NCBI GenBank assembly: GCA_943349395.1 | Contig: CALQZH010000001.1 | Location: forward strand, 19,275 to 64,096 | Source: Parcubacteria group bacterium | GTDB lineage: Bacteria > Patescibacteriota > Minisyncoccia > UBA6257 > UBA11618 | Direction of reading: 5' to 3' | Length of the DNA stretch: 44,822 bases | In this document: in pieces, positions 13,161 through 32,840 of the stretch | Numbering within the stretch: the stretch's first letter is position 1 | Layout: each line of letters begins with the position of its first letter | Made by a program: the position numbers and the translations under genes | The notes under the pieces: generated by a model | Told to the model about the DNA's origin: nothing | The model's database searches: none | Seen by the model: only the letters and a program-made list of their open reading frames with translations

Positions 13161-13284
13161 GGAAGATGGGATTCGCCTGCCGCGGTGGGACCTTACAAAT
13201 GGAGGGTGGGATTCGCCCCTTCGCCGCCTATGCGGCTCGGAATCTTCGGCTCCTATTAGGAGCCTGCGACCCGCGGTTCGAATC
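13161..13284 (-). repeat. tRNA-Ser-associated palindromic element S1 (13205-13284) plus end remnant (13161-13177)
   Basis: Minus strand GATTCGAACC...GGCGAATCCCACC; near-identical to the unit at 32448-32526. Confidence 0.8.
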
Positions 13285-13293
13285 AGCACCCAC

Positions 13294-13336
13294 CACTAAC
13301 AAAAGAGATGCCGTGAAGGCATCTCTTTTGTTAGTG
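13294..13336 (-). terminator. 19-bp perfect hairpin directly after tRNA-Ser
   Basis: CACTAACAAAAGAGATGCC-gtgaa-GGCATCTCTTTTGTTAGTG. Confidence 0.75.
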
Positions 13337-13420
13337 CGGAGGAGGTGGGATTCGAACCCACGAGACCCTTTCGAGTCGAGGATTAGCAATCCTCTGCCTT
13401 GACCGCTAGGCTACTCCTCC
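13337..13420 (-). tRNA. tRNA-Ser(GCT)
   Basis: GGAGGAG acceptor, anticodon arm GAGGA-TTGCTAA-TCCTC, long variable arm, GGTTCGAATCC T-arm, G73. Confidence 0.95.
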
Positions 13421-13451
13421 AGTCCTGCCTAGTATATCCCGATTATCGAGC

Positions 13452-13973
13452 TTGATCAAACGCCGGCCTATCCCCTATCATCCGCGTCATATGGTCGCCA
13501 TCCTCCATAATATCCGGAGCGCGCACAACGTCGCCTCGATATTCCGCACCGCGGACGGCGCGGGAGTCCAGAAGCTCTATCTCTGCGGCATAACGCCGGG
13601 ACCGCTCGATGTCTTCGGCCGCAACCGGGAAGACTTCGCGAAGGTGGCGCTCGGTGCCGAAAAGGCGGTGTCGTTCGAGAAAGTCGCGCGCACTGCGGAC
13701 TGCATTAGGCGTCTCAAGGCCGCGGGCTACTTCGTATGCGCGCTCGAGCTCGCTCCAGGCGCGGTCCCCTACTGCGATGCAGTCTTCTTGAAGGCGCATG
13801 CGGGAAAGATCGCGATCGTAGTGGGCCACGAGACAGAGGGCATCCCGAAGCGGATTCTCGCGCGGTGTGACGCCGTCGTTTCGATCCCCATGCGCGGCAT
13901 GAAGGAATCGCTCAATGTCTCCGTGGCCTTCGGTGTGATCGCTTTCGAAATGGCCCGTTATCGGTTATCGTGA
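13452..13973 (+). CDS. TrmH/SpoU-family RNA methyltransferase
   Basis: NIRSAHNVASIFRTAD, VGHETEGI and IPMRGMKESLNVSVA motifs. Confidence 0.92.
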   Translation: MIKRRPIPYHPRHMVAILHNIRSAHNVASIFRTADGAGVQKLYLCGITPGPLDVFGRNREDFAKVALGAEKAVSFEKVARTADCIRRLKAAGYFVCALELAPGAVPYCDAVFLKAHAGKIAIVVGHETEGIPKRILARCDAVVSIPMRGMKESLNVSVAFGVIAFEMARYRLS

Positions 13974-15616
13974 CTTTATCTAATAAGCTAACGAAGCTAA
14001 CAGCTAAAGAAGCTAGTATCATGTTCGGCCTGGAGAAAATCGCGTCGAAAATAGAGATCCCGCCCGAGGGCGTGGGAGCCGACTTGGCCATCCCCTGCTT
14101 CCGGGAGGATCCCGAAGCGACGGCCGAAAAAATCCGCGCCTTGAAGAACCCGCTTTTCAGGGAGGTGGTCGTGAAGGGGCGCTACGTGAACGTCTCGTTC
14201 GACTGCGCCGTCTTGGCACCGCTCGTGCTCGCGGAGGTCGCGGCGAAGAAAGACGCGTATGGCTGGAACGACAGCGGTGGGGGAAAGAAGGTGATGATCG
14301 AGTACTCGGCCCCGAATATCGCGAAGCCCATGCATATGGGCCACGCGCGCAACAACGCGATCGGCCACGCGCTCGTTAACCTCTACCGCGCGAACGGCTA
14401 CGAGGTGATCACGACGAACCACTACGGCGACTGGGGTATGTCTTTGGCGAAGATCATGCTCGCGTACGGCAAGTGGGGAAATCGCGCGGAATTCGACAAG
14501 GACCCGGTCCGGCACCTGCTTGGCCTCTACGTGCGGATGACGAAGGAATCTGCGGATAACCCGGCGCTCGAAGACGAGGCGCGCGCGCTGTTCAGGAAGC
14601 TCGAGGGCGGCGACCGGGGGCTCCATGCGACGTGGCAGGAGTTCCGCGACGTGAGCGTCGCGAACTTCGAGCGGATGTACGGCCTCCTCGGGATCTCCTT
14701 CGACGTGAAGAACGGGGAGAGCTTCTATACGGAATTCATCCCTAGGGCGATCGAGGAGGCGCTCGCGAAAGGCGCGGCGCACTACGGCGAGGCGGCGGAA
14801 GGCGGCGAGGGAAAGCCCGTCGCCGTGAATCTCGATGCGTGGAAGCTCCCCTCATTCCTATTGCAGAAGAGCGACGGCGCGTCGCTCTATGGCGCCCGCG
14901 ACATCGCGGTCGTGAAGTGGCGGCTCGAGCACTATGACGTGGAGAAGATCGTCTACGTCGTGGGGCACGAGCAGGAGCTCTACCTGAAGCAGATTTTCAA
15001 GACGATGGGGCTCATGGGCTACCCGGAGGAGAAGCTCGCGCACGTGAGCTATGGCATGGTGACTCAGGGCGGCAAGAAGATCTCGACGCGCACGGGCAAT
15101 ATCGTGTTCCTCGAGGACGGCTTCGAGGACGCAATCGCGCGCGCGAAGGGAATAAAAGAGGTGGGCATCGGCGCGATCATCTATAATATGCTTTCGATGG
15201 GCCGGGAGCACGACATCGCGTTCTCGTGGGACGCGGCGATGAGCGTTCAGGGCAATAGCGCGCCTTATATCCAGTACGCGTACGTGCGCGCGAAGGCCAT
15301 CCTCGAGAAGGCCGATGCCCCCGCTCCCCTGCCAGCGCCCTACACGCACCCAGTCCTCGAGCGCGAGGCGGCGCTCTTGAAACTCGTCGCGCATTTCCCG
15401 GGGGTTGTGTGGCAGGCGCACGCGCTCGAGGCGCCGCACCTCATAGCGACATTCCTGAACGCCTTCGCGCAGGAGTTCAACCGCTTCTACGCCTCGGTGC
15501 CGGTATTGGAAGATGGTGAGGGTCGCGATCTGCGCCTCGCGCTCGTCGCGGCTTCGGCACAAGTTATCAAAAACGGCCTCTGGCTCCTTGGCATTGCCGT
15601 GCCGGAGCGGATGTAA
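13970..15616 (+). CDS. argS: Arginine--tRNA ligase
   Basis: EYSAPNIAKPMHMGH (HIGH motif), KISTRTG, GNSAPYIQYAYVR, C-terminal PERM; start may be the ATG at 14021. Confidence 0.96.
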   Translation: MTLSNKLTKLTAKEASIMFGLEKIASKIEIPPEGVGADLAIPCFREDPEATAEKIRALKNPLFREVVVKGRYVNVSFDCAVLAPLVLAEVAAKKDAYGWNDSGGGKKVMIEYSAPNIAKPMHMGHARNNAIGHALVNLYRANGYEVITTNHYGDWGMSLAKIMLAYGKWGNRAEFDKDPVRHLLGLYVRMTKESADNPALEDEARALFRKLEGGDRGLHATWQEFRDVSVANFERMYGLLGISFDVKNGESFYTEFIPRAIEEALAKGAAHYGEAAEGGEGKPVAVNLDAWKLPSFLLQKSDGASLYGARDIAVVKWRLEHYDVEKIVYVVGHEQELYLKQIFKTMGLMGYPEEKLAHVSYGMVTQGGKKISTRTGNIVFLEDGFEDAIARAKGIKEVGIGAIIYNMLSMGREHDIAFSWDAAMSVQGNSAPYIQYAYVRAKAILEKADAPAPLPAPYTHPVLEREAALLKLVAHFPGVVWQAHALEAPHLIATFLNAFAQEFNRFYASVPVLEDGEGRDLRLALVAASAQVIKNGLWLLGIAVPERM

Positions 15617-16047
15617 TACATTTATTTTTGTTGTGGGGTAGATGGAGGCGGACGAGATGCTGGCCAAGCTGGCAATCTTAGGTGGCCTTTCGAAGCCCCA
15701 AACACCCTCCGTGCTGACCATGGCAGTTCACGGAGGGATGTTTTTATATGACGCGAAGGAATACTTGCGGTTCCTAATAGGATGTGTTACTATATCATCG
15801 GTTTCAGAAGAGGCGGTCGATTGTTCCTTCATGGCGTAAGATACTGGTATCTTCCTAAGAACTTTGCGGACACCCTTTTTGCGGTAGTCATGGGAAGCTG
15901 CCTGAAGGCATTGGCTGTCCTATTCGCCCCGGCTCGCATGAGAGAGCGAGTTCGGGGTTATTTTTTTGCCTGTTTTGACACGGTATTCAGGATGGCGTTA
16001 TATGAGTGGGTTCATTGAATTCCCAATACCTCGAAAGGAGGTGTGTT

Positions 16048-16743
16048 ATGGGCTTCTCGGCCCGTTTGCTTATCGTGTATCCCGATCCGCCGAAGGAGGG
16101 CATTCCCGTATGGAGGTCCCACGAAGTCATTGATTTCGGGGAAATTACCCGCTTGGAAAAGCTCACGGGCGAGGCGGGCGGAAGCCCGTACAATCCCAAT
16201 GGGCATGTGCGGGCGGGAATATGCGCCATGCGCATGATGCTTGAGCGCCTATGGCCTCGCGCGGAGAATCCGCGCCGCGAATGGTTCGCGCCGGATATCC
16301 TCGTGTATAGGGATAATTCGGGTATCGTCCAGGCACGTGCGGTGGCGGATGAGGCGGGCGCGAAAGAGTGTATCGATTGCGGCACGCGTAACCCGCAAAC
16401 GGATAGTATCTACGACGTGAGCGGGGGCAAGCGCTATCCGTCCCTGAAGCGCATCCGCGAGCACAATATTCTGATCTCGCTCGAGGATGGGGAATTATGG
16501 GAACGCCTCAAATCACGGCAGTACCATGTCATAAGCGATGCGCCGATCATGTGGGCGCCGTGTGCCGAGATTGCCCAGTGGATGAGGGAAGACGAGTTGG
16601 GAGGATCGGCCGCCTTCCTCGAAGCTGCGAAGGATAAGGTCTCGCTCGCGCGCGTGACGGGTTGGAGGAAATATTTGCGCGAAGTGGGCGCGGCAGATGC
16701 GCGAGCGCTCTTCCTCTTTCCGACCTGCGATCATGGGATGTGA
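16048..16743 (+). CDS. Hypothetical protein
   Basis: Strong SD (AAGGAGGT) before ATG 16048; one CxxC; followed by a terminator. Confidence 0.6.
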   Translation: MGFSARLLIVYPDPPKEGIPVWRSHEVIDFGEITRLEKLTGEAGGSPYNPNGHVRAGICAMRMMLERLWPRAENPRREWFAPDILVYRDNSGIVQARAVADEAGAKECIDCGTRNPQTDSIYDVSGGKRYPSLKRIREHNILISLEDGELWERLKSRQYHVISDAPIMWAPCAEIAQWMREDELGGSAAFLEAAKDKVSLARVTGWRKYLREVGAADARALFLFPTCDHGM

Positions 16744-16763
16744 GATATGTTCTAGTGCGCTGC

Positions 16764-16788
16764 GCCCCGTCGGATGACGGGGTTTTTT
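16764..16788 (+). terminator. Intrinsic terminator
   Basis: GCCCCGTC-ggat-GACGGGGT followed by a T-run. Confidence 0.75.
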
Positions 16789-16836
16789 CTATATGGATGC
16801 ATGCGGGAATTTGCAGTGCGGGGTATACTCATACGT

Positions 16837-17424
16837 ATGAAGGGTATCGCGAAGAAAGCTCGGATCAAGGACGAATTTTCGGTATTGGAGGCGCTCCATG
16901 CGAAGGGCGTTGCCGTGCCTCCCTTCGCGACCGACCTGCGGGATATCGGGGGCGTGGGGCTTCCGGCCTTCGTCATCGCGCGCGGCGGGGGCGGGGCGAC
17001 AAAGAAGGAAGCGGTCGCGCGGTACGGGGATATCGCCCCCGCGATCGCGAAAGCGTCGCGCGGCGGCGCGGAGGTGTTCGTGCAGAAGAGCGTTGCGGGG
17101 CACGAGATCGCCTGCGGCGTGATGCGCCATGAGCGGAAGTTGGTACCCCTCATGCCTATCGAGGCTATCCCCCGCGCGCGGCACGAGAGCGTGCCGTGGC
17201 ATCTCTCGGAGCGGCAGATCGGGCATGTGCAGGCGCTCGCGCTCGCGGCGCACAAGGCGCTCGGAATCGCCACGCACTCGTGCGTGCGGTGCGTCATGTC
17301 GGGGCAGGAGGCCTACGTGACGGCGGTCGAGCTCTCCCCTGCTCTCGCGCACGGGAGCCTGTTCGCGCATAGCGCTGCGGTCGTGGGCTTCACGCTCGCG
17401 GAACTCGAAAAATCATTATCATGA
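16837..17424 (+). CDS. Degenerate D-Ala-D-Ala ligase-like ATP-grasp C-terminal domain protein
   Basis: VFVQKSVAGHEIACGVM, AHKALG and P....SLF..SAAVVGFTLAEL align with the Ddl C-terminal half; catalytic residues are substituted. Confidence 0.6.
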   Translation: MKGIAKKARIKDEFSVLEALHAKGVAVPPFATDLRDIGGVGLPAFVIARGGGGATKKEAVARYGDIAPAIAKASRGGAEVFVQKSVAGHEIACGVMRHERKLVPLMPIEAIPRARHESVPWHLSERQIGHVQALALAAHKALGIATHSCVRCVMSGQEAYVTAVELSPALAHGSLFAHSAAVVGFTLAELEKSLS

Positions 17425-17858
17425 TCACCTGGTCATCCCCCGAATTCCACTATCACGAGAAGGACGAGGCGTGGCCCGTCATCGTGGTTTTGGCGGGCAT
17501 GGCGATCGCGGGCATATCGCTCTGGCAGCACAACTTCCTCTTCTTCGTGTTCACCTTGATCGCCACCGGCCTCGCGGTCGTGTGGGGAACCCGCCAGCCG
17601 CGGCACTTCGAATTCTCGCTCGAGAAGCGCGGCGTGCGCATAGACGGGAAGATCCATCCGTACCACGACTTCGACGGCTTCGCGATCGACAGCGGCACGC
17701 TCCAATTGAGCACGAGAAGCCTCCTGCATCCCCGTTTTTCCATACTGATCCCCGAGGAGCGCGCGGGCGACATCCACGGGCATCTCCTGGCATTTTTGCC
17801 CGAAATCGAGTATGATGAATCATTCATAGAGGCGCTCGGGCGCATCGCGCGCTTCTGA
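17421..17858 (+). CDS. Two-TM membrane protein with PH-like C-terminal domain
   Basis: ITWSSPEFHYHEK...W, 2 TMs, GVRIDGKIHPYHDF; ATGA overlap with the upstream gene. Confidence 0.75.
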   Translation: MITWSSPEFHYHEKDEAWPVIVVLAGMAIAGISLWQHNFLFFVFTLIATGLAVVWGTRQPRHFEFSLEKRGVRIDGKIHPYHDFDGFAIDSGTLQLSTRSLLHPRFSILIPEERAGDIHGHLLAFLPEIEYDESFIEALGRIARF

Positions 17859-17867
17859 TCGAAAGCC

Positions 17868-17939
17868 GTCCTCATAGCTCAATGGATAGAGTGTAGCCCT
17901 GCGAAGGCTGAGATTGTGGTTCGATTCCACATGGGGACA
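17868..17939 (+). tRNA. tRNA-Arg(GCG)
   Basis: GTCCTCA/TGGGGAC acceptor, TAGCC-CTGCGAA-GGCTG anticodon arm, GGTTCGATTCC T-arm. Confidence 0.93.
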
Positions 17940-18150
17940 CATATATCAAACGCCCCCTGCACAGGGGGCGTTTGATATATGCTTTCGTGGATATCGAACC
18001 AGACGGCGCCAATTTTTCCCAAGAGCGAGGCGATTGGATGAAAAATTGAGCGTTTCGACCCGCAGGGAGAGGCGATTCCACATGGGGACACACATAAACC
18101 AATACCCCTAACGAGGGGTATTGGTTTATGTGTCTATGGAATCGAACCAG
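17940..18150 (+). repeat. tRNA-Arg downstream module: hairpin, palindromic element A1, 20-bp tRNA 3' duplication, second hairpin, element left end
   Basis: Hairpin 17940-17981; TGGATATCGAACC...GGCGATTCCA at 17988-18080; CGATTCCACATGGGGACACA at 17922 and 18073; hairpin ~18090-18133; TGGAATCGAACC at 18137. Confidence 0.85.
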
Positions 18151-18174
18151 AATAGAACCCTTTTTAGGGGGTTT

Positions 18175-18711
18175 TTAAGCGACTGTAAAAAAAAGAAAGA
18201 TAAGAAAAAAATGGATTCCTAAGACAATCGACATCGGTCGATATATCTGATTGAATCCGTATTTTACGGTATACGTTATGAATGTGGAAATAATGAATAA
18301 GACAGCCAGGGCGAGGTATAAGAGAAGGAAGAGAAAAGCCCCGAACCCCACCTCCCTCCCAGAAGGATAAAGGAACCAAAAAGCAACGCTTCCTAATATC
18401 AAAAATGACAAAGGACTGAACATTAGGAAGAAAAAGAGAAGTCGGCCTTTTCGGGTTAATTGGCCTTCTATGGCCGTATCAGCTTCGTTCGGAGCCGATA
18501 TGATATTTTGCTGATTATTTTTGCGATCATGGATCAGTGTTGCTATGAATCCTATTGCGAAGAATATTGGCACTGTGATAATCGTGATCGTGTTAAGGCT
18601 TGGATAGGAGAAAAAATGAAAAGTAAGAGAGTCGATTATGACAAGAAGGTAGAAAAAGGCAACCGCTATAAGGCCGAAACAAAGGGATTTGACAGCGCTA
18701 CGTAACCACAT
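18175..18711 (-). CDS. Low-GC orphan membrane protein
   Basis: About 5 TM segments; TATAAT-N6-ATG start; AT-rich relative to its neighbours. Confidence 0.7.
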   Translation of the reverse strand: MWLRSAVKSLCFGLIAVAFFYLLVIIDSLTFHFFSYPSLNTITIITVPIFFAIGFIATLIHDRKNNQQNIISAPNEADTAIEGQLTRKGRLLFFFLMFSPLSFLILGSVAFWFLYPSGREVGFGAFLFLLLYLALAVLFIISTFITYTVKYGFNQIYRPMSIVLGIHFFLIFLFFTVA

Positions 18712-18782
18712 GGTCTGATTATATACTTGTTATGGCCTTAATAAAAAATCGAGCATATATTGGGTGCGTAGGGATGAACAGA

Positions 18783-18811
18783 TTGATTTTCTCCGAGGAA
18801 AATCATATGAT
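18783..18811 (+). promoter_or_regulatory. Sigma-70 promoter of tRNA-Gly
   Basis: TTGATT-N17-TATGAT. Confidence 0.5.
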
Positions 18812-18825
18812 AATCCCCATAGAGC

Positions 18826-18896
18826 GCGGGTATAGTACAATGGTAGTACGTTTGGTTGCCAATCAAAATACACGGGTTCGATTCCCGTTACCCGCT
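18826..18896 (+). tRNA. tRNA-Gly(GCC)
   Basis: GCGGGTA/TACCCGC acceptor, U73, TTTGG-TTGCCAA-TCAAA anticodon arm, GGTTCGATTCC T-arm. Confidence 0.95.
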
Positions 18897-18900
18897 CAAG

Positions 18901-19161
18901 CTGATACTTAAAACCCCCATTACAATGGGGGTTTTAAGTATCAGTGTGAAATGGATATCGGGAATCGAACCGTAGGTCCCCTGTTTTCAAGAAGGCCTGT
19001 GGCCGACTATGAAAACAGCGACCTCGAGCGGAGCGAGAGGCGATTCCCGTTTTCAATTAATAATGAGATCTAACCGTAGGTCCCCTGTTTTCAAGAAGGC
19101 TCGCGGCCGACTATAAAAACAGCGACCTCGATCCGCCAACTGGCGGAGAGAGGCGATTCCC
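18901..19161 (+). repeat. tRNA-Gly downstream hairpin plus two tandem palindromic elements G1 (18959-19051) and G2 (19065-19161)
   Basis: 20-bp hairpin at 18901-18944; both units contain AACCGTAGGTCCCCTGTTTTCAAGAAGGC...GGCCGACTATRAAAACAGCGACCTCGA...GAGAGGCGATTCCCG. Confidence 0.9.
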
Positions 19162-19209
19162 GCTTCATTGGCGAGAAATCATCATCAGGAATATTATAAA
19201 TACAAGATA

Positions 19210-19719
19210 ATGACCTTTTTCAATAACACGCGGCGGACGGTGAAATTAGCTTCTTTCGGGGGCGTGGTCGCGTTCCTTGGTTTTATTTTTGCTGGAGTTG
19301 ATAGTGTTAGTGGTATTGCTCTGGGGATTTCTTCCGTTATCGTCGCTCTTCTTATCGCATTCTCTTTTCTCTTGCCCGGCGGGTTCGCGGGGGTTTCTCT
19401 GATACTTTCATATTTTGCATGGGCATTCCTATTGAGCTTCTTAGATCCCCACGCGAGTTTTAACGAGGGCATTATCCTCATATTCATACCGTACTGCATC
19501 ATCACCTTTTCTTATGTATATTTGATAGGAACAGTGAGGAAGCATGATGAGAGTCGGGATATCGTTGTGCAGGGCAGGCAGGCGCCGAAGCAAAGCCTTG
19601 GGATTTTTCTAGGGAAATTCGTAATGGTATTCATCTTGATAGCTCTTGGAATATATGGCTTTTCCTATTTGATAGAAGGCACCTTCATAGACAGGATTAT
19701 AAATAGCATTATTCCCTAG
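19210..19719 (+). CDS. Low-GC orphan membrane protein
   Basis: About 5 TM segments; bracketed by GGCGATTCCCG element ends. Confidence 0.7.
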   Translation: MTFFNNTRRTVKLASFGGVVAFLGFIFAGVDSVSGIALGISSVIVALLIAFSFLLPGGFAGVSLILSYFAWAFLLSFLDPHASFNEGIILIFIPYCIITFSYVYLIGTVRKHDESRDIVVQGRQAPKQSLGIFLGKFVMVFILIALGIYGFSYLIEGTFIDRIINSIIP

Positions 19720-19720
19720 A

Positions 19721-19755
19721 AGGGGCGATTCCCGTTTACAATAAGCGATTCCCGT
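19721..19755 (+). repeat. Two element right-end remnants
   Basis: AGGGGCGATTCCCGTT and GCGATTCCCGT right after the orphan gene stop; they match the tRNA-Gly 3' sequence CGATTCCCGTT. Confidence 0.65.
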
Positions 19756-20213
19756 CACCTCTCTCCTCCTTGCGCTCGCGCGAATTCTTGGAGCGCGGCA
19801 CGTTGGGATTCGTGAAGATGGGCCCCTGGGCGTTGGGTTTGTATGAGAGCGAACGCTTCTTCGGGCGACTTCCCCTTCTTCACGAGATACGCGGCAACGA
19901 GGGTGGGCGCCCTGCCGTGCCCGTTCTTGCAGTGCACATACACCTTCTTTCCCATGGCAACGATTTTTTCGAGTGCGGAAACTCCGAGCTCGAATTGGTC
20001 CGGGGTGGGGGGCATATGGTCGTGTACGGGAATCCACGCAAAAAAGGCGACGCCGAAAGGGGCATCAACCCGTTCTTCTTCTAAGGAGATATCCGCAACG
20101 ATCCCCTCTCGCAGGAGCACTTCGTCAAAGTGCGTTTGACAGCATTGGTTCGTGCCGATATAGATGCCATCGGCAATATGGTTATAATCGAGAGCCTTCT
20201 TGAATAGATGCAT
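19755..20213 (-). CDS. Dual-specificity protein phosphatase family protein
   Basis: VHCKNGHGRA (CX5R) P-loop, IPVHDH loop, AYLV...IQTQRP; start at 20213 or 20234. Confidence 0.9.
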   Translation of the reverse strand: MHLFKKALDYNHIADGIYIGTNQCCQTHFDEVLLREGIVADISLEEERVDAPFGVAFFAWIPVHDHMPPTPDQFELGVSALEKIVAMGKKVYVHCKNGHGRAPTLVAAYLVKKGKSPEEAFALIQTQRPGAHLHESQRAALQEFARAQGGER

Positions 20214-20583
20214 AGGGGGATCGAATGATTGCATGGTAGCACATAGCGGAATTTTTTGATTTTGGAATTCGTCTATGGAATAAAAAAAGTCCGACCACTC
20301 CATTGGCCGGACATCTGCTCCCCTTGCGGGAAGTCTTTAGCGTTTCTGCCGCTCGGGCTCGTCTGCCATAGGGTCGAAAAGCTCGTGCGCAATGAGCGGA
20401 CCGCGGGGGTCCATGATATCGGAGGCGGGGTTCTCGCGCTGCTCGGCCCTGTCTTCGGGCGTCGGGCGCATGCCGTCGCGCGTTCCGTGAATGAGCCATC
20501 TCAATCGTTCGTGCATCGTCCTTCTTTCTTCGGGATGCGGAGAATCATCTCCGTGATACTGAGCCGGTCGAGCGAGGTATTCA

Positions 20584-21189
20584 TTACGGGTATCGTAGAT
20601 CCATCGCTTCCTTGAATCGGAATTCCCGGATGATATCCGGCATGAGGTCGCTAACCTCTTGCTCCATGGGATCGTCGCGATGCTCGAGGGTGCTCCCCTG
20701 CAGCGGCCGCATGCCGAAGCGATACTGCTTCGCGTGCAGGCATTCCTCGATAGTCTGGAGGGCCATCACGTGGAACGCGGGGAGATCCGGCACGTAGTCC
20801 GGCATATGGCCGAAACGCACCAGGTCTCCGCAGTGAGCGTGCTTCATGGCGCGCACGACAAAGACATTCGTGACATAGAGTACAGGTTCCCTGGCCGGAA
20901 GGCTTTCGCCGACAAACATGCGGTTGAAGGAAATGGCTCCTGCGCTGTCGGTTGCATCGCATGCGAAAACGAGATCGTAAGGGGTCGTACGGAATCCCCA
21001 TATCTCGTGCGCGAAGTCCACGCCCTGCTTCATCGCGTCGATGAGGCGATAGAGCGAGGAGCTCGTTACCCAGGGGTAGAGTCCGGTTTTTTGGACGTGG
21101 TCGTCTTGGGAGATGATGGTTAGGAGGTCGTGGAATGGCTGATTCGGAGGGGGATGTAAGAGCGTACGGAGTTGGCCGAGCGCGTTCAT
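20584..21189 (-). CDS. Hypothetical protein with EExxH (zincin-like) motif
   Basis: IEECLHAKQY followed by DPMEQE; SD-like AAGGAA upstream. Confidence 0.55.
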   Translation of the reverse strand: MNALGQLRTLLHPPPNQPFHDLLTIISQDDHVQKTGLYPWVTSSSLYRLIDAMKQGVDFAHEIWGFRTTPYDLVFACDATDSAGAISFNRMFVGESLPAREPVLYVTNVFVVRAMKHAHCGDLVRFGHMPDYVPDLPAFHVMALQTIEECLHAKQYRFGMRPLQGSTLEHRDDPMEQEVSDLMPDIIREFRFKEAMDLRYP

Positions 21190-21306
21190 GGGGTTCCTTT
21201 CGATGGTTGGCGTGTCGAAGATCTACGTCCCCATGATCGGTTTTTCAATGCAAAAAGTCAATAAAAACAAGCTTATTCAAGCCTCTTATGGGGTGGATGG
21301 GATGGG

Positions 21307-21336
21307 TTGACAATATTGATATTAGTATGGTATAAT
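21307..21336 (+). promoter_or_regulatory. Consensus sigma-70 promoter
   Basis: TTGACA-N18-TATAAT with an extended TGn. Confidence 0.75.
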
Positions 21337-21421
21337 ATACATGTAGAGAGTAAGACGAGATCCTGCTCCGCGTGGTGCGGAATAGGACGGAAATCCTTGA
21401 AAATTCGTTGGAGACGAAATC

Positions 21422-21736
21422 ATGCAGGCGTTGAAATGGATTCGTGAAGTGGCGATGTTCTTCTTCTTTGGAAGCTTCGTCGTGGGCGGGGGCCTCGGCC
21501 TCGTGTGGCTCGGAGGCAGTGATCTTCCTATGGTACGAACGCTCGCGATGCTCGGAGCATTCGTGTTCTGCCTTACGGCCACGATCCAGATGCTCATCAC
21601 CGCGTTTCTGTGGATGAGCGGCTGGGAGATCGGCAAGGTGGAAGGAGCTCCCGATGCCTGGGATGAATTCTACTACGCACAGATGGTGGCCGCCGGATGG
21701 CACGTCGGACAAAACGGCTGGGAAAAGAATGCGTGA
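21422..21736 (+). CDS. Small membrane protein
   Basis: GGAG SD, two TM segments, downstream of the consensus promoter. Confidence 0.55.
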   Translation: MQALKWIREVAMFFFFGSFVVGGGLGLVWLGGSDLPMVRTLAMLGAFVFCLTATIQMLITAFLWMSGWEIGKVEGAPDAWDEFYYAQMVAAGWHVGQNGWEKNA

Positions 21737-21817
21737 GGCCGGAACGGCCTCGTTCACGAGGCTCGCTCGGACTTCGGTCCGGACGAGCTTCATTTTTTGG
21801 AGGAAGGAGCATGAAGG

Positions 21818-22003: not shown

Positions 22004-22102
22004 AGCCCCGGTAAGGAGACGGGGTTCCAAACGGCGTCGTCGGATCAGGTTGATCCGGCGGCGCTATTTTTATTTTCGCATCTGCGGAAATAATCCTCCG
22101 AA

Positions 22103-22118: not shown

Positions 22119-22136
22119 GAAGGAGGATTATTTCCT

Positions 22137-24374: not shown

Positions 24375-25524
24375 AGACGTTCTTCTGCTGGATTCTCTCA
24401 TAAATATAGTCGTGGAGCCGTTTCGCGTCAACGGGTTCCGGGCCTTTCGCGCCGGCATTGTAATGCGCGATCTCCTTCGCGACCTCATCGTCGGCGGGCT
24501 GTATCCCCTCTTTCTCGGCGATCTCGTAGATCACGAGATGCTGGGCGATCTTCCGCTTCGCGGCGTCGTCCGTGAGGGACGGGTCCTGCTCCTTGATCCG
24601 CACGATCATGGGCGCGGGGATGTCGATTGTCGCGGCATCCGATATCGCCTCGAGCGCCTTCTGCGCCGCGGCTTCGTCCTCGTGCTGGGCCTTCTCGGCG
24701 AGGATCCCGGCGCGCATATTCGTCGCGAGCTCCTCGAACGTCTTGATCGAGCCGAGCGATTGGGCGAATGTGTCGTCTGCCGGGGGCAGGACGCGGTCGA
24801 AAACCTTATTGACCGTCACGTCGAAGGTTATTTCCTTCCCGCGGAGACTTTCCTTCCAATAGTCGGCCGGCCCCGTGAGCGCGAATGCGAGCGTCTGCTC
24901 GGCCGTCACGCCTATGAGCTTATCCTCGAATCCGGGCATGAAGTGGCCGTTGCCGAGCACGAAGCGGTCGTGGTGAGGCTTCGTGTCCTCCGAGCTCGTC
25001 ATGTCGATGTCGATCACATTCCCCTTCGCGGCGGGCGTCGCGAGTTCCGCGAGCGTCGCGCGCGAGGTGCGGAGCCATAGGAGCGCGTCCTCGAGCTCCT
25101 TGTCGGTGACCGCAAGCGCCGCCTTCTTCGTAGCGAGCGCGGCCCGCTCCTTCTCGGCGATTTTCGCATAGCCGGAAATATCGACTTCCGGAAAGAGGGA
25201 GAGCGTCGCGACATAGGAGAATGCCGCCGGATCCTCCTTGATCTCTATGCGCGGCCGGTCGATGATCGTCCAATCATTCGCCTCCGCGGCTTCGGCGAGC
25301 GTGACCTTCACGGCGCGCTCCGCCGCGTCGTCGAACACGGCCTTGGGACTGATCGCCTCGCGCGCGAGGGACTCGGGCACCATGCCCGGGCGGAATCCCT
25401 TTATGGCGAGCTCCGCCCGGCGCGCTTCGAACGCGCGGTCCATATACGCCTTGAATTCGGCGAGATCGATCGAGACGGAAAGCTCGACGCCCGATCCGGG
25501 AAGTTTCTTGAACGATGATGTCAT
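24343..25524 (-). CDS. tig: Trigger factor
   Basis: [10 protein letters not shown] ribosome-binding loop, [15 protein letters not shown] segment; tig-clpP order. Confidence 0.92.
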
Positions 25525-25568
25525 AGCGGGGTTTTTCTAACTGCTGATCACTGAAAACTAACCACTCG

Positions 25569-27551
25569 TTAAAGGAACGGGACGAGGAGGAGCGCGACGA
25601 TGTTCGCGACCTTGATCAAGGGGTTGATCGCCGGGCCCGCGGTGTCCTTGTAGGGGTCGCCCACGGTGTCCCCTGTTACGGCTGCCTTGTGCGCGTCCGA
25701 TCCCTTGCCGCCGAAGTGGCCGTCCTCGATGTACTTCTTCGCGTTGTCCCAGGCGCCGCCGCCAGTGGTCATCGAGATGCCGAGGAAGAGGCCGGAGGTG
25801 ATGATGCCGATCAGGAGGCCACCCAAGGCCTGCGCGCCGAGGAAGTGGCCGACCGCGATCACGCCGACGATCGGGATGAGCGCGGGCACGACCATCTTCT
25901 TCAATGCCGCGCGGGTCACGATGTCGACCGCCTGGCCGTAGTCGGGAAGGGCCGTGCCTTCCATGATGCCGGGGATCTGCCGGAACTGGCGGCGGATCTC
26001 GTCGACGACCGCGCTCGCGGTCACGCCCACGGCGCGCATGGTGACGCCGCTGAAGAGGTACGGGAGCGAGGCGCCGAGGAGGAGGCCTATCAGGACGAGG
26101 GGGTTCGTGAGGTCGAAGCTCGCCATGGCGCCGCCCGTTTTCGGAAGCGCTTCGGCATAGCTCGCGAAGAGCACCATGGCCGCGAGGCCTGCGGAGCCGA
26201 TGGCATAGCCCTTGGTGACCGCCTTCGTGGTGTTGCCGACGGCGTCGAGCTCGTCGGTGATCTTCCTGACTTCCGCGGATGCCTTGCTCATCTCGGCGAT
26301 GCCGCCGGCATTGTCGGTGATGGGACCGAAGGAGTCGATGGCGACGATGATGCCGGTTGAGGAAAGCATGGCGACGGTCGCGAGGGCGACGCCCACGATG
26401 CCCATGGCGAAGTACGCGGCGAATATCGCGGCGCACACGACGAGGACGGGCATGAAGGTCGACTCCATGCCGACCGCGAGGCCCATGATGACGTTCGTGC
26501 CGTGGCCCGACCGGGACGCTTCGGCTATCGCCTTAACGGGCGCGAATTTCTTGGAGGTATAGTAGTCGGTGATCATGACGAGCAGGCCGGTGACGATAAG
26601 GCCGATCGCGAGGCTCCAGAGGACGTGCGGAATATCCTGGGGTGCCATGGCGAAGCCCGTTGTTTGCCAGAGATCGGTCACAGTGAACCAGAAGAATGCG
26701 GCGGAAAGCACGAGCGAGGCGACGAGGCCCTTGTAGAGCGCGCCCATCACATCCTGCGATTTCCCGAGCGATACGAAGAATACGCCGATGAGCGAGGCGA
26801 CGATCGAGACGCCGCCCAAGACGAGCGGGAGCGGGCTCTGTACGAGGAGAAGCGCGGCGATCATCGAGACCGCGTAGGTCTCGAAGAGGTCCGCGGCCAT
26901 GCCGGCGCAGTCGCTCACGTTGTCCCCTACCAGGTCGGCGATGACGCCGGGGTTTCTCGGATCATCTTCGGGGATGCCCGCTTCCACCTTGCCCACGAGG
27001 TCCGTGCCGACGTCGGCCGCCTTCGTGAAGATGCCGCCGCCCAGCCGGGCGAATACGGAGATGAGGCTCGCGCCGAATCCGAGGCCGATCAAGGAGCTTA
27101 TGTTGCCGCCTGTCGCGAGCGTGAGGCCGGCGACGGATGCGAGCGCCAAGGCGACGACGAGGAAGCCGGTTACGGATCCCGCGCGGAATGCGAGCGAGAG
27201 CGCGGGCGCGAGGCCCTTATGCGCGGCCTGGGCCGTCTTCGCGTTCGCGCGCACGGCCACGTTCATGCCGATATAGCCCGCGGCGCCCGAGGCGATCGCG
27301 CCGATAGCGAAGCCCATCGCGGTCGTCTGGCCGAGATAATGCCAAATCACGAGCGCGAGCGGCACGGCCACGAGGGTGATCGTGAAATACTGGCGGTTGA
27401 GAAACGCGGCGGATCCCGTCTGGATCGCGCGGGAGATGCGCCTCATCTCCTCGTTGCCCGAGGACTGGGCGTTCATGCGGATGACGGTGTATGCGCTGTA
27501 GGCTATCGCGAGCGCTACGGGTCCGAAAATGAGGTAGTTGATCGTATTCAT
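25569..27551 (-). CDS. hppA: Membrane-bound H+-translocating pyrophosphatase (K+-independent type)
   Basis: [42 protein letters not shown] and [14 protein letters not shown] motifs. Confidence 0.96.
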
Positions 27552-27576
27552 TGGTGTGTATGTATGATTCGTTTTC

Positions 27577-28836
<1,260 letters not shown>

Positions 28837-28938
28837 GATGCGGAGTGATTAGTTTGTATGGCGGTCGGATAGGCGCTTGAAAATGATAATGGCCGCCCAC
28901 TCGGACAGCCAGTCAGTCGCATACCCTCAATATCGATA

Positions 28939-29319
28939 TTATATGTTTTCGTAATGCCGTATGTCAAGGGTGCCGTTCCTATGGATATCGACGGCTATCA
29001 TGTCGATGCGCCATCCCCTCTCACCTACGAGTTTCGGGCGGGCGTTCGCATATGCCTCTGCTGCGCGCTTGGTCTTCCTGACTTTCGCGGCGGTCATATT
29101 ATCCTCGGGCGTTATGAAACTGTTTGACGATAAAGTCAAATCAGTGCATATGGTTTTAACCTCGACGAAGACGAGAGTTCGGTCGGGGGCGGTAGCGATG
29201 ATGTCGAGCTCGCCCCAGGTCTGGGAGTGGTTGCGCTCGACCACCCGGTATTTTTTGGCGATCAGGTAATCTGCGGCGGCATCCTCCCCTGCTTGGCCGA
29301 CGGATCGGTTCGTTTTCAT
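28939..29319 (-). CDS. yraN: YraN (UPF0102) family endonuclease-like protein
   Basis: GQAGEDAAADYL, GELDIIA, LVFVEVKT and RIDMIAV motifs; TATACT-N6-ATG start. Confidence 0.9.
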   Translation of the reverse strand: MKTNRSVGQAGEDAAADYLIAKKYRVVERNHSQTWGELDIIATAPDRTLVFVEVKTICTDLTLSSNSFITPEDNMTAAKVRKTKRAAEAYANARPKLVGERGWRIDMIAVDIHRNGTLDIRHYENI

Positions 29320-29384
29320 GATTTCAGTATAGCCGTATATGGCGATGTTTGCCGGCGAACACACGCCGGAATTTTAAAAGAGAA

Positions 29385-29706
29385 TGTTTCACGTTTTACA
29401 AATCGATCTGTTTTTTTGTAAATCAGCAAACACTTGAAAATAAGATTTTTTAAAAACATAGGATTGATGAGGATATCGGATTGTAATGAAAATAGAGTGT
29501 TTCACACATGGTAAAAATGTTTCACAGTCGGATATGCGCTTGGTTATTATGTTTTGATGTGTAAAACATTTTTATAAAAATGTTTTACAGTTTTGTTTCA
29601 CAGTCGGATAATGGCTCTGTTATTGATATATCCGAGTGTGAAACATATGTTTCACACGAGAGAATGTTTCACAGTGTTTTACAAAAATGTTTCACAGTGT
29701 AAAACA
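29385..29706. repeat. AT-rich array of 12 TGTTT(C/T)AC(A) motifs (parS half-site-like)
   Basis: Forward copies at 29385, 29498, 29518, 29581, 29594, 29648, 29665, 29675 and 29688; reverse copies at 29560, 29637 and 29698. Confidence 0.85.
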
Positions 29707-29810
29707 GGGAAGGGTGGGGGGATTGAAGATGAAAAAACGCCGTCGCCTCGTCCGCCATGCGGCGGAGAGGGGACGGCGTGTACGGCAAGAAGAGCGTCTC
29801 CGTATCTCGT

Positions 29811-30407
29811 TCATGTGATGAGAGGGTGACCCGTTTCCCATGTCCTCGATCGGCGGATCTCTCGCGCAATCGCGCCTATGCCTCTCGCATCGGTGAGTTG
29901 GTGCATGCGCGCGAGCAAGGCGATGCATCGGCGGCTCCTGATGCCCGGATAGTCGCGCGGGCAGACGGGCAGGGGATGGGCGTTCGGCATGCCCCATGCC
30001 CTATACGTGCGCTTGATGCGCGCGCAGTCGAAGTCGCAGGCTATGAAGTCGAAGCGGACGGTCACGGGTCGCTTGAGCGAATTCAAGAGGCGATTCGCAA
30101 GCGCGCATTCTTCGAACCTGTCCCGGGCCCGCATGAGGGCTTTGGTTTCGGGGTAGCTGGCTTGCGTGATGATATGCCGTTGCGGAATCCCGCGCGTAAT
30201 GAGCCGGGAGGCCATCACGGAGGCGATGCTCGTTTCGGGGTTCTCCTGCGGGAGGTCGAGCCCCGAGAGCAGGACGAAGATCGTTTGGGGGTACTGGACG
30301 AAGTGTCGCGTGGCTTCGGCGAGGACGTTTTCGGCGAGGGAAGAGAGTGCGCCGTGCCGATCGATCTGATTGCCGTGAATGAAGACGATCTTTCCGATGT
30401 CGCTCAT
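29811..30407 (-). CDS. Divergent DUF218 (YdcF/ElyC-like) protein
   Basis: VLLSG...ASVMASRLITRGIPQRHII...FIACDFDCAR follows the DUF218 pattern. Confidence 0.55.
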   Translation of the reverse strand: MSDIGKIVFIHGNQIDRHGALSSLAENVLAEATRHFVQYPQTIFVLLSGLDLPQENPETSIASVMASRLITRGIPQRHIITQASYPETKALMRARDRFEECALANRLLNSLKRPVTVRFDFIACDFDCARIKRTYRAWGMPNAHPLPVCPRDYPGIRSRRCIALLARMHQLTDARGIGAIAREIRRSRTWETGHPLIT

Positions 30408-30542
30408 GGGCGTTGCTCCTTTTGTGAGGATGTTCTGGATTGTCGGGGTGCTACGGGAGAGAGTATATGACGGTTGGGTATGAAAATAAATAGGCGCCGT
30501 CCGGTCGTGGCCGGAGGGCGCCTGAGGGGTGGGGGAGCGGGA

Positions 30543-31073
30543 TCATCCCGCGATCCGTCGGTATATGCGCCAGGGTATGGTCTGCAGGATGCTCTCGCGG
30601 ATCACCCATCGTAAGCGATGCTGGGTGCAATACCGCTCTCCTTTGGGGTAGAACCAGTACGAAGGGGAGTGCTCCTCGAGGAAGATGTCTTGGCCGTATG
30701 CGGAAAGCGTCGCGTCCAAGCCGACTTCCCGCATCGCCATTCTCATATCTCGCATGCACCGCCGGATATGGGGAGGTGCGGCGACGATATGGAGCTCGGT
30801 CAATCCGATCCTTTTCGCGCTTAGTGCTGCGAACCGCGCGATGCGGAGCGTGGGCGGCGGGGGATTGGCACCGGGAATCTGCGGGAAGATCCAGACGCCG
30901 TTCGGGACGTGCGGATTCATGATGCCGCAATCGAGCTGGGTAAATACCGACGCGTTCATAATGTGCGCCGCGGCGCACGCCACGTCATGGATCGCCTCGT
31001 TCGCGGGGATCGAGTGCGGCATGCCGAACGCGAAAGCGACGATGCCTTTTTCTCCGCATAGAGAGTCTGTCAC
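30543..31073 (-). CDS. Divergent DUF218-like protein
   Basis: IVAFAFG, PTL..A and HIVAAPPHIRRC motifs; W..RE in the C-terminal helix. Confidence 0.5.
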   Translation of the reverse strand: MTDSLCGEKGIVAFAFGMPHSIPANEAIHDVACAAAHIMNASVFTQLDCGIMNPHVPNGVWIFPQIPGANPPPPTLRIARFAALSAKRIGLTELHIVAAPPHIRRCMRDMRMAMREVGLDATLSAYGQDIFLEEHSPSYWFYPKGERYCTQHRLRWVIRESILQTIPWRIYRRIAG

Positions 31074-31246
31074 GGAAAGGTCCTTTCTATTCTATGAGCT
31101 CCGCAAGGAGCGGAGGGGAGAGTGTGGTGTCAGGGTGCGGAGCCTATGATGTGTTAAAAAAGAAATAAAGTCAATTGATCCGATGCGCGAAACGAAGGCC
31201 CCGCAGGAGCGGGGCTGAGGGATACCAAGGGGCGTTGGAAGGGCGT

Positions 31247-31915
31247 TCAGAGCCGATCCTGATCTTCAAGGAGGAGCGAGGGGTCGCTGAAGTGAGCGCG
31301 ATCGTTCCATGAGCGGATGAGCCAGGGGTTCGCGCGCGACTCGTCGTATTCCAGGGTCGCGATGCCGCCGTTGTCGGTGCGGAACGCGCGCATGAATTCG
31401 CCCATCTCGCGGCCGGATATCGCTTGGCCGAAGGTCGCATGGGCCGCCATGCAGCGCATGAAGACGCCGTGTGTCGCGACGAGGATCCGCTCGCAAGGCA
31501 GCGCGGCCAGATGCGCCAAGGCGCGGCCCGCGCGGCTCTTCAGATCGTCGAAATTCTCCTCGTCGGAAAAGCGGAATCCCTCGCGGAAATTCTCATGGAT
31601 CGTTTTCGATATCGCGAGCATCTCGGGGCTGACTTTCCCGAGGCCGATATGGGCGCTGGGCTTCCTGCGTTCGACGAAGAGGTCGGAGGTAGCAGGGGAG
31701 AGGCCGAGCTTCTCGCCGATGATCTCGGCGGTCTCGCGGGCGCGCCGGAGCGTGCTCGAGACGAGCGCGTGGTACGGTTCGTCTTTCGCGAGGCGCGCGG
31801 CGACCCGTAGGGATTGGTTGCGGCCCGAGGCGGTGAGAGGGGAGTCGGGGTTCTGGTACACGGCGTTCGCGTTTCCCTGGCTCTCGCCATGGCGTATGAG
31901 GAGAATCGTTTTCAT
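31247..31915 (-). CDS. Histidine phosphatase (phosphoglycerate mutase family)
   Basis: LIRHGES, LTASGRNQ, SSTLRRARETA, VATHG and WNDRAH motifs. Confidence 0.92.
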   Translation of the reverse strand: MKTILLIRHGESQGNANAVYQNPDSPLTASGRNQSLRVAARLAKDEPYHALVSSTLRRARETAEIIGEKLGLSPATSDLFVERRKPSAHIGLGKVSPEMLAISKTIHENFREGFRFSDEENFDDLKSRAGRALAHLAALPCERILVATHGVFMRCMAAHATFGQAISGREMGEFMRAFRTDNGGIATLEYDESRANPWLIRSWNDRAHFSDPSLLLEDQDRL

Positions 31916-32189
31916 ATATAAGGAAGATGGATCTTTGAGATCAGTATATAGGGGATTATGATAAAAATCTCCGGATCGGCAACGGCCGTTCCGGAGATTC
32001 GAGGATATCGCCTGCGCGAAGCGTTCATGCTGTCGCGAGGGCGATGGGAACGAGTTTCAGGTACCAGGCCATGGCCTGGCGCATGCCGCATTCGCAGGGA
32101 GTGCCGCAGAGATCGGTCCGTTGGGTGCCTGCCGGACATCCCGAAAGATGGAGTCCGACGACGCCGATCAGGCTCTCGACGGCATTGAA

Positions 32190-32363
32190 TTACTCGATGC
32201 GCCGGCCGTCATCAGGCTCATACGGATGAGGGGCTCCATGCGTCTCGGTCAGGAATGTCACTTGGAAGGGCTTCCTGCATGACCGGCACTGGATGACCTG
32301 GCCCTCAGCATAGGAATGCTTCTGGTTCTCTTCTTGGCATATCGGGCACGTGCACTTCGCCAT
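32190..32363 (-). CDS. Small zinc-ribbon protein (57 aa)
   Basis: Hand-translated MAKCTCPICQEEN...IQCRSCRKPFQV...; two CxxC pairs; below the track cutoff. Confidence 0.55.
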   Translation of the reverse strand: MAKCTCPICQEENQKHSYAEGQVIQCRSCRKPFQVTFLTETHGAPHPYEPDDGRRIE

Positions 32364-32447
32364 GGGACGTATATTCCCTGTTCGAGTTTCAAAAAAAACG
32401 ATAGGACGCTGAACAATATATAATCGAAAATGAGGGGATTATCAATA

Positions 32448-32714
32448 GGGAATCGCCCCTTCTCCGCTCTTACGACTCGGAATCTTCGGCTTCTTATAAG
32501 AAGCCTGCGACCCGCGGTTCGATTTCTTATTGTGGGGGGATCGCCTCTCCCTCTCCGCCAGCTGGCGGATCGGTCGAGGCCTCAAAACTTCGTGATTTAG
32601 GCCTGCGGTTCGATATCTAATAGAAGGGAATCGCCTGCCGCTTCGCGGCAGACCATCGATTTTCATAATCGGCCGGAGGCCTCATTGAAAATCGTGGCCT
32701 GCGGTTCGATTCCC
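32448..32714 (-). repeat. Three tandem tRNA-Val-associated palindromic elements V1 (32626-32714), V2 (32535-32617), V3 (32448-32526)
   Basis: On the minus strand each starts ATCGAACCGC and ends GGCGATYCCC; V1 resembles G1/G2 and V3 resembles S1. Confidence 0.85.
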
Positions 32715-32768
32715 GCCTCTAATACCCACATTACAAAATACCCTCACGCTGGAGGATATTTTGTAATG

Positions 32769-32840
32769 TGGGCAATGGGGGAATCGAACCCACGGCATCC
32801 TCTGTGTAAAAGAGGCGCTCTACCACTGAGCTAATTGCCC
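32769..32840 (-). tRNA. tRNA-Val(TAC)
   Basis: GGGCAAT/ATTGCCC acceptor, CCTCT-TTTACAC-AGAGG anticodon arm, A73; followed by a long hairpin at 32725-32772. Confidence 0.93.

Follow-up and report, generated by a model that had tools for sequence, protein, structure and literature searches.

Hairpin units with tRNA-copied ends behind tRNA genes of Patescibacteria: a possible family of miniature mobile cassettes

What are the short palindromic units that follow tRNA genes in a Parcubacteria group bacterium, and why do their ends repeat the tRNA next to them? The question arises from a stretch of 44,822 nucleotides of contig CALQZH010000001.1 (the window), for which a preliminary description, made from the letters alone, had reported four tRNA genes followed by a hairpin and one to three such units, and had suggested a candidate cassette-capture system. 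Calling tRNA genes with ARAGORN, we found six in the window, of which Ser(gct), Arg(gcg), Gly(gcc) and Val(tac) carry units and Ile(tat) and Leu(tag) carry none. Behind the four anchors, and on the same strand, the layout is a long hairpin followed by one to three units of 77-96 nt. The units were analyzed in the window, in the genome to which it belongs (G000; 622 kb, 22 contigs, 43 tRNA genes), in other genomes of the genus (G001-G004), which as kin are not independent in the comparative counts, and in wider collections. The units resemble a family of small mobile cassettes, as yet undescribed. Our preferred reading, for which we would give about even chances, is that they are miniature non-autonomous elements whose target is the 3' end of tRNA genes and whose active form is a folded single strand, on which an enzyme supplied in trans would work.

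A hairpin or a short loop separates the tRNA from what follows. In the sense of the tRNA, a unit opens with an inverted copy of the tRNA tail ending in TCGAACC, continues with GNAGG, a long interrupted hairpin (P2) and a UCUCGACC-GNA-GGGAGAGG hairpin with tandem G.A pairs (P3), which may bear an extra small hairpin, and closes with CGA and a direct copy of 9-24 nt of the tRNA from the T-loop onward, often with another hairpin behind it. Units are non-coding and range from 64 to 125 nt. The end pattern TCGAACC-55..85 nt-GGCGAWYCC matched six times in the window against 0.02 matches expected, and none of 100 shuffles reached six; the seventh unit, G2, falls outside the strict pattern, having TCTAACC at its left end. 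All seven units of the preliminary description were recovered, with offsets of 1-4 nt.

The ends follow the local tRNA, as had been claimed. Taking all sites of G000-G004 that fit a loose junction pattern, several of which are internal and not true unit ends, we found that right junctions matched the cognate tRNA over at least 9 nt in 28 of 73 cases against 42 of 3148 non-cognate comparisons, and that left (inverted) ends did so in 11 of 50 cases against 27 of 2154. Local T-loop variants are followed by both ends (an A/T difference in Ser, ACT in Gly(tcc), ATC in Gln and Met), and the AGT variant of Leu is followed by the right end only. Match lengths cluster at ~11 nt, corresponding to T-loop plus T-stem, and at 19-21 nt, reaching to the gene end and into the trailer. 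The proximal end, described earlier as an antisense copy of the T-loop, is indeed an inverted copy, but it extends further, into the T-stem and sometimes the acceptor strand, with lengths of 3 to 23 nt. Examination of the 400 nt downstream of each tRNA of G000 for copies of at least 9 nt of its last 22 nt revealed a direct copy at 12 of 43 tRNAs and an inverted one at 11 of 43, and the upstream control gave 2 direct and 1 inverted. Exact direct repeats of 19-21 nt of the tRNA tail are present at 10 loci or more, that is, repeats bounding an insert as those of integrating elements do.

The four loci of the window illustrate this anatomy. tRNA-Ser(gct) (13336..13420, minus strand; ARAGORN and Rfam RF00005, 64 bits) is followed directly at its 3' side by a perfect 19-bp terminator-like hairpin (13294..13336, arms 100% complementary), the outer flanks of which run into the tRNA-Ser 3' end and its inverted copy. 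Next comes unit S1 of subtype A (13209..13285, minus strand, tRNA sense), identified by the end pattern, by nhmmer (1e-17) and by a covariance model that was built from 24 units and is biased towards the genus of G000. At the right junction of S1 (13201..13217, minus strand), 11 nt of T-loop and T-stem of tRNA-Ser are directly repeated, and a second right-end remnant, a junction with a 9-nt tRNA tail copy and no interior, lies at 13161..13177 on the same strand. Behind tRNA-Arg(gcg) (17868..17940, plus strand; ARAGORN, Rfam) stand hairpin H1, with complementary arms forming a perfect 20-bp stem (17940..17981), and unit R1 of subtype C (17990..18079, plus strand; end pattern, 56.6 bits with the covariance model), and then a direct repeat of the tRNA-Arg 3' end (18073..18096, plus strand; 24 nt at 96%), in which 20 nt from the T-loop C to the gene end are exact, the longest exact repeat in the window. 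Hairpin H2, again with a perfect 20-bp stem (18090..18133), lies behind this repeated tail and is followed by an orphan left end, an inverted T-arm copy with an 8-nt match (18137..18152, plus strand), of a truncated further unit. tRNA-Gly(gcc) (18826..18897, plus strand; ARAGORN, Rfam) has a hairpin at 18896..18949 and two plus-strand units of subtype B: G1 (18961..19047; 94.2 bits, DNA fold z of -5.1) and G2 (19065..19160; 71.5 bits), the latter with a degenerate left end and an extra small hairpin in P3. tRNA-Val(tac) (32768..32840, minus strand; ARAGORN, Rfam) is followed by a hairpin whose arms reach into the tRNA 3' end (32716..32781) and by three minus-strand units: V1 of subtype B (32627..32713; 91.1 bits), whose P3, a hairpin of 7 bp, is Watson-Crick paired throughout and has a GAA loop, V2 of subtype D, with a short P2 (32537..32617; end pattern and covariance-model match), and V3 of subtype A (32449..32526; covariance-model match). 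Linkers between abutting units measure 6-21 nt. The ~19-21 bp given earlier for the hairpins holds for Ser and Arg (perfect, 19-20 bp) but not for Gly (26 bp at 92%) and Val (30 bp at 83%). Subtypes are common to different tRNA loci, as the preliminary description had noticed: S1 and V3 are 83% identical, G1 and G2 79% (92% over 64 nt) and G1 and V1 74%, and the remaining pairs show 54-66% identity.

The linkage to tRNA genes proposed from these four loci extends to the whole genome. All 14 covariance-model matches in G000 lie within 250 nt downstream of a tRNA and on the tRNA strand, and nhmmer with 12 unit queries (E<1e-3) likewise placed all significant copies within 250 nt downstream on the same strand and found nothing significant elsewhere. 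Units or remnants occur at 12 tRNA loci, four in the window and eight outside; the latter comprise Ser(cga), Ile(gat), Leu(gag), Gly(tcc), Gln(ctg), Met and Arg(ccg), with units or remnants, and Leu(taa), with a remnant. Several contigs of G000 stop 50-400 nt past a tRNA, as they would if repeats caused the breaks, and the assembly of G000 is probably broken by units. tRNA-Trp was not found in G000 by ARAGORN; three sister genomes have tRNA-Trp with units behind it. After tRNA-Val(cac) on contig C7 (about 3900-4012) lie two tandem T-arm-plus-acceptor tRNA fragments with no unit between them, which resemble old attachment sites. Near-duplicate sequences are located downstream of tRNA-Ala(tgc) and tRNA-Ala(cgc) (G000:C1:90721-91197 and the region of C2:34106-35674).

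The units fold into bulged stems, in agreement with the preliminary description. The two tRNA-derived ends pair as a helix, P1, with a two-base (AA) bulge; P1 covaries, and its words are T-loop-like, not integron core words. P1, P2 and P3 are backed by RNAalifold and by explicit pair counts, with compensatory changes in 13 of 26 pairs: 88.5% of cells are paired, none of 500 shuffles equaled the observed measures, and shifting the partner columns lowered pairing to 33-48%. In P3, where most units have tandem G.A pairs, the V1 type has C-G pairs instead. G.U pairs are common as well; at one position they account for 16 of 24. Both these and the tandem G.A pairs exist on the tRNA-sense strand only, which was more stable than the antisense strand in five of five units with DNA and RNA parameters alike. 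A competing pairing sets P2a, or the left end with a TCGACC word, against P3. A tRNA-like gene on the opposite strand was considered and rejected, as ARAGORN made no call there and the antisense strand folds worse.

The covariation of the fold and the strand asymmetry indicate that a single strand is the active form. That strand could be RNA, and the main rival explanation, which we regard as possible but rather unlikely, takes the units for structured non-coding RNA genes or co-transcribed tRNA 3' extensions, a minihelix mimic on a three-way junction, its two termini pairing into a copy of the acceptor/T-stem stack of the adjacent tRNA, that would be processed by tRNA maturation enzymes and serve as decoy or regulator in tRNA metabolism, the matched ends being kept by selection. 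Covariation, G.U and tandem G.A pairs on the sense strand, the greater stability of that strand and the constant orientation with the tRNA all agree with such an RNA, and the full-length tails (up to 23 nt) at many loci would form a perfect helix resembling the acceptor and T-stem. Many copies, however, have only 9-11 nt of tail and hence no acceptor helix, and in the genus a 17-20-bp terminator-like hairpin usually stands between tRNA and unit. The hairpin tips, moreover, are often C-GNA-G, a triloop typical of DNA hairpins and less typical of RNA; by this triloop type we lean towards DNA. C-GNA-G is described as an unusually stable DNA mini-hairpin loop in the abstracts of PMC13037366 and PMC3201870.

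The units turn over between close relatives, a further point in which they depart from a housekeeping RNA. All five genomes of the genus bear units (14, 16, 7, 4 and 5 covariance-model matches), and 43 of these 46 matches immediately follow an intact tRNA on the same strand; of the other three, two are at contig ends and one has been shifted by an island of 3.8 kb. The same model found no unit in 12 genomes of 8 other genera of the family, so that one of nine genera is positive. Consistent with the earlier proposal that units move or recombine at tRNA 3' ends, unit subtype and copy number vary at the same tRNAs among close relatives, and some differences in cargo were found too. Behind Gly(gcc), G000 has two B units, G001 an A unit plus two other forms, and G004 a single unit, a 21-nt repeat of its own tRNA variant and a second hairpin. 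Behind Tyr there is only a hairpin in G000, and units are present in G001, G002 and G004. Leu(taa), which has only a remnant in G000, is followed in G001 by three near-identical tandem copies of 100 nt, each a unit with 24 nt of tRNA tail and trailer. At Tyr of G001 the distal copies are the more decayed, and truncated, nested and collapsed copies are common. These broken copies, the tandem triplication and the turnover between sister species, with most related genera devoid of units, argue against a structured RNA.

The young tandem copies of G001 have neither the hairpin nor an extended inverted tail. In addition, the hairpins behind tRNA-Ile(gat) of G000 and G001 (L036, L019) differ at many stem positions and yet are both perfect palindromes, suggesting palindrome correction or replacement rather than ordinary drift. 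Quasi-palindrome correction of this kind is part of an explanation that requires no dedicated enzyme, in which replication template switching and 'perfecting' of palindromes at the T-loop word formed the units and microhomology-mediated copying spread their interiors between loci. The young copies, the Ile stems and the varying length of the inverted tail copies agree with it, as does the T-loop word itself, which is nearly its own reverse complement; TCGA is present at both extremities of a unit (left end and right junction) as well as ahead of P3. But template switching leaves unexplained the fixed orientation, the sharp boundaries and the conservation of P2 and P3 over large phylogenetic distance, and units are present in some lineages only, although the T-loop word is common to all. 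We consider it a highly improbable account of the family.

How far the family extends was assessed with the covariance model, which found units in 9 of 151 genomes of the order, belonging to 4 of 32 families, and with a 20-letter motif covering P3 and the right junction. The motif matched 50 records of a species-representative collection, about 40 of them labeled Patescibacteria (Paceibacterota, Parcubacteria, Yonath-, Nomura-, Kaiser-, Lipton-, Azam- and Harrisonbacteria, and some labeled Saccharibacteria), with about 9 matches expected by chance according to our own estimate. Ten records from other phyla were not accepted as carriers, their number being close to that estimate; likewise, a viral origin was rejected, the sole match in a viral contig lying in a GC-rich coding region and looking like chance. 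Of 54 motif matches, 36 lie 65-265 nt behind a same-strand tRNA, and three more were linked by eye to a tRNA- or tmRNA-like sequence. The loci of other lineages are arranged in like manner, frequently with inverted and direct tails of full length, and genomes hold from 1-4 up to 13-16 copies. P2 and P3 sequence is kept across distant lineages, which is to be counted in favor of a structured RNA. The same holds for G008, a genome of another genus, where the inverted-plus-direct tail layout surrounds an unrelated interior of ~115 nt at 3 of 38 tRNAs; a strong terminator follows this interior and none precedes it.

Several observations from these lineages stand apart. The second interior family of G008 (L084, L094, L069) is located at Met, Arg(ccg) and Ile(gat), its two best copies being roughly 90% alike by eye. 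In L110, a named Parcubacteria record, the motif match at 4042-4061 (minus strand) belongs to a unit that lies behind a gene end resembling the tRNA-like 3' end of tmRNA (CCACCA), some 140-150 nt upstream of the match, which suggests that the target may include tmRNA. Another module type, 'E', consisting of a CCGCC...GGCGG hairpin with a purine-rich tail, is found behind tRNAs and sometimes within a subtype-A unit (L032, L034, L027, L019, L020, L017; G000:C2 about 61000-61130), and yet more modules in other lineages share a GACTTGTGACCACA word.

Do the units carry genes? The preliminary term 'cassette capture' would at best cover three loci with cargo, most units being empty and standing back to back, and the integron pattern of one open reading frame (ORF) between successive sites is not what we found, cargo being limited to those three loci. 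The distance from tRNA-Arg to tRNA-Gly is 885 nt in G000 and about 50 nt in G001 and G004; the 885-nt stretch holds a hairpin, a unit, the 20-nt repeat, a second hairpin, the orphan left end and, as candidate cargo, an AT-rich ORF for a 178-aa multi-pass membrane protein without Pfam match (18175..18711, minus strand). Neither the second hairpin nor this ORF had been mentioned in the preliminary description. Behind tRNA-Asn of genome G104, two identical hairpin-unit-tail modules 567 nt apart surround a promoter-like site and a 57-aa ORF. A strain-specific island of 3.8 kb in G001 (L126:547-4344, contig C10) lies exactly at the 3' end of tRNA-Ser(gga) and pushes away an older tail-fragment-hairpin-unit; its genes encode a Tsp45I-type restriction enzyme, a LexA-like/S24-methylase fusion and a DUF4238 protein, and its borders are a perfect 13-nt inverted repeat holding a T-loop-like word. 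No recombinase gene was found inside this island, and DUF4238, considered as a mobility gene, was rejected as it is present in G001 only. Inserts of 100-900 nt contain no integrase, including the one with the ORF at 18175-18711.

Islands at tRNA ends bring up a further explanation, namely that the units are passive scars, the attachment-site arms of deleted integrase-carrying phages or plasmids, in which case the direct repeats would be the attachment sites that once flanked each element. Direct repeats of tRNA 3' ends are the classic mark of tRNA-integrating elements, and the strain-specific islands, the tandem tRNA fragments after tRNA-Val(cac) on contig C7 and a large serine recombinase adjoining tRNA-Ala(tgc) can be cited in its favor. 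Scars would decay independently, however, and would not retain compensatory pairs, and the same 64-125-nt interiors, uniform in length and with a covarying fold, recur at 12 tRNAs of a 622-kb genome and in many lineages. Furthermore, no integrase remnants were found beside units, and the near-identical tandem copies are just 100 nt long. We therefore judge scars to be very unlikely, and, like template switching, they account for parts of the picture only.

Which enzyme could act on the units? The co-distributed recombinase or HUH/REP-type transposase that the preliminary description had looked to was not found. The sole tyrosine recombinase of G000 is a Xer-like protein of 294 aa (36309..37193, plus strand), which reaches 123.9 bits with the integron-integrase model (cut-off 265) and agrees best with Xer models; it is a candidate for the trans-acting enzyme, the link being solely that it has no other tyrosine recombinase beside it in the genome. 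A large serine recombinase is encoded by a 523-aa frame beside tRNA-Ala(tgc) (G000:C2:34106-35674). Of the Y1 domain (PF01797), G000 retains a 32-residue C-terminal piece in a 56-aa frame, and mobilization by RAYT/IS200 was rejected given that remnant. A guide of the TnpB/omega-RNA type was rejected as G000 has no TnpB, and TIGR-Tas arrays were rejected as no Nop protein was found (PF01798, no match) and unit sizes differ. TIGR-Tas units have 8-12-nt repeats and about 9-nt spacers according to a passage of PMC12045711. As for miniature inverted-repeat transposable elements (MITEs), no transposase family was found that would mark an autonomous element with the same terminal repeats, in a search short of a full transposase census.

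G000 also encodes two reverse transcriptases. One is retron-like (101 bits, cut-off 235) and occurs in G000 and G001 only, the genomes with most units; in the other three unit-bearing genomes of the genus it was not found. Its gene (G000:C1:72207-73214, minus strand, 336 aa) adjoins tRNA-Leu(taa), and the 690 non-coding nt upstream of it (73215-73907; gene and stretch together are L059:1501-3201, outside the window) are hairpin-rich, 85% identical between G000 and G001 and without Rfam match, and probably represent an RNA associated with the reverse transcriptase. The second (G000:C22:1-732), group-II/diversity-generating-like and cut by the contig start, lies about 170 nt from the hairpin after tRNA-Tyr and has relatives in 9 of 17 genomes of the family. 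A reverse transcriptase as driver was rejected: such enzymes are present in four of five other unit-bearing genomes but are common in the group, and within the genus only two genomes of five have the retron-like one. We also rejected the idea that mature tRNA was copied by a reverse transcriptase, since the repeats run into the gene trailer and no CCA is added.

Database searches were in line with the earlier remark that this is no recognized element. In the window only tRNAs reach Rfam gathering scores and no family matches the units; at E<=1, 16 unit-bearing loci gave tRNAs or sub-threshold matches over tRNAs and hairpins, and on the units themselves no match attained the gathering score of its family. 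Searches of the body text of open-access papers gave no account of elements of this kind. Another, different short palindrome behind tRNA genes is described for Methanopyrus in PMC5217627.

Of the earlier interpretation, then, the fold, the tRNA linkage, the matching of ends and the turnover stand and the enzyme does not. The features to be explained are targeting, tail duplications, decayed outer copies, turnover, tandems, cargo, bursts and a wide, patchy distribution; a family of mobile DNA fits them best, an attribution that we hold with the scales about level. Because the two tRNA-derived ends pair in P1, the folded single strand would mimic the duplex T-arm of a tRNA gene. An enzyme supplied in trans could recognize the core of the T-loop in both partners, tRNA gene and folded element, and join the two so as to preserve the tRNA and leave a second copy of its tail on the distal side. 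Newcomer cassettes would enter beside the tRNA and shift older, decaying ones outward, producing mini-arrays, while interiors would swap between tRNA loci and ends would remain local; genes may ride along occasionally. A bolder form of this scheme, which strikes us as unlikely, is an integron-like platform docking at the universal tRNA T-loop, in which a host enzyme acting in trans would insert folded single-stranded mini-cassettes and larger relatives bearing genes, among them restriction-modification islands and small ORFs, beside tRNA genes and copy the tail each time.

A number of points weigh against mobile cassettes. Single-stranded DNA and RNA are not distinguishable by covariation, and the conservation of P2 and P3 together with the constant tRNA orientation suits a functional RNA equally; at several loci of other lineages no terminator stands between tRNA and unit, which makes co-transcription possible. 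Neither an integron-type integrase nor an intact Y1/RAYT, TnpB or Nop/Tas protein was found in G000, and the 50 unit-bearing 8-kb loci identified by the motif contain no Xer-like or serine-recombinase homologue. In the contigs of four sequencing runs we found no excised circle, empty-site allele or junction variant; the assemblies break at units and have no joints that skip them, and V2 shows three base differences, which are not compensatory. Finally, a crossover at the T-loop would need an element bringing a matching tail for each of more than ten tRNAs, which is awkward, and therefore the target tail would be duplicated at insertion or the flanks would be converted later within palindromes. 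The young tandem copies of G001, with neither hairpin nor extended inverted tail, fit later conversion.

Known systems share some of these properties. Like the units, integron attC sites are imperfect palindromes that act by their fold, with inverse and direct core words pairing at the ends, unpaired stem bases, strand specificity, arrays beside one anchor and cargo sometimes between sites. Unlike attC sites, the units are anchored at a tRNA gene, have no integron-type integrase, copy the local tRNA at their ends, mostly abut without an ORF between them and have a conserved interior sequence. REP/BIME and other repeats that depend on Y1 enzymes (RAYT, IS200/IS605-type) are also short, extragenic, multi-copy imperfect palindromes, strand-specific, folded as single-stranded DNA and non-autonomous, and form mosaic arrays and subtypes, but the units occur only behind tRNA genes, are longer, have a three-helix fold and a genome (G000) without an intact Y1 gene, and REP elements do not have target-matched ends. 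tRNA-targeting integrative elements and their cis-mobilizable derivatives resemble the units in using the tRNA 3' end, leaving the tRNA intact, producing a distal tail repeat and accreting in tandem; by contrast, the units measure 100-150 nt, have no integrase, form one family at more than ten tRNAs and add an inverted tail copy and a conserved, covarying hairpin interior. In phage hairpins that exploit Xer and in the dif modules of Acinetobacter plasmids, as proposed for the units, a host recombinase acts in trans on a folded strand that resembles its duplex target, small modules lie between sites of alternating orientation, and each insertion regenerates a site for the next; the target of the units, however, would be the tRNA T-arm and not dif. 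MITEs are likewise small and non-coding and have terminal inverted repeats, a flanking direct duplication, subtypes and lineage-specific bursts, but in the units both inverted repeats and duplication are the target's own sequence and vary by locus, and no parent IS sharing their ends was found.

Patescibacteria have tiny genomes thought to be poor in repeats and mobile elements; in one of them, between a quarter and a third of the tRNA genes bear a structured repeat with ends copied from the tRNA, and the element is met again in many named lineages of the group. The folded unit with its fixed junctions offers a concrete substrate for biochemistry. Whatever their nature, the units break assemblies at tRNA genes and can confuse island finders based on tRNA fragments. 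If they are RNAs, they would constitute a new class of tRNA-mimicking molecules. If they are mobile, they would represent a new way of targeting a DNA word common to all tRNA genes while leaving the tRNA intact, and would mark hot spots at which defense genes and small genes enter genomes; and the integron-like platform, if real, would give the smallest bacterial genomes a new way of capturing genes.

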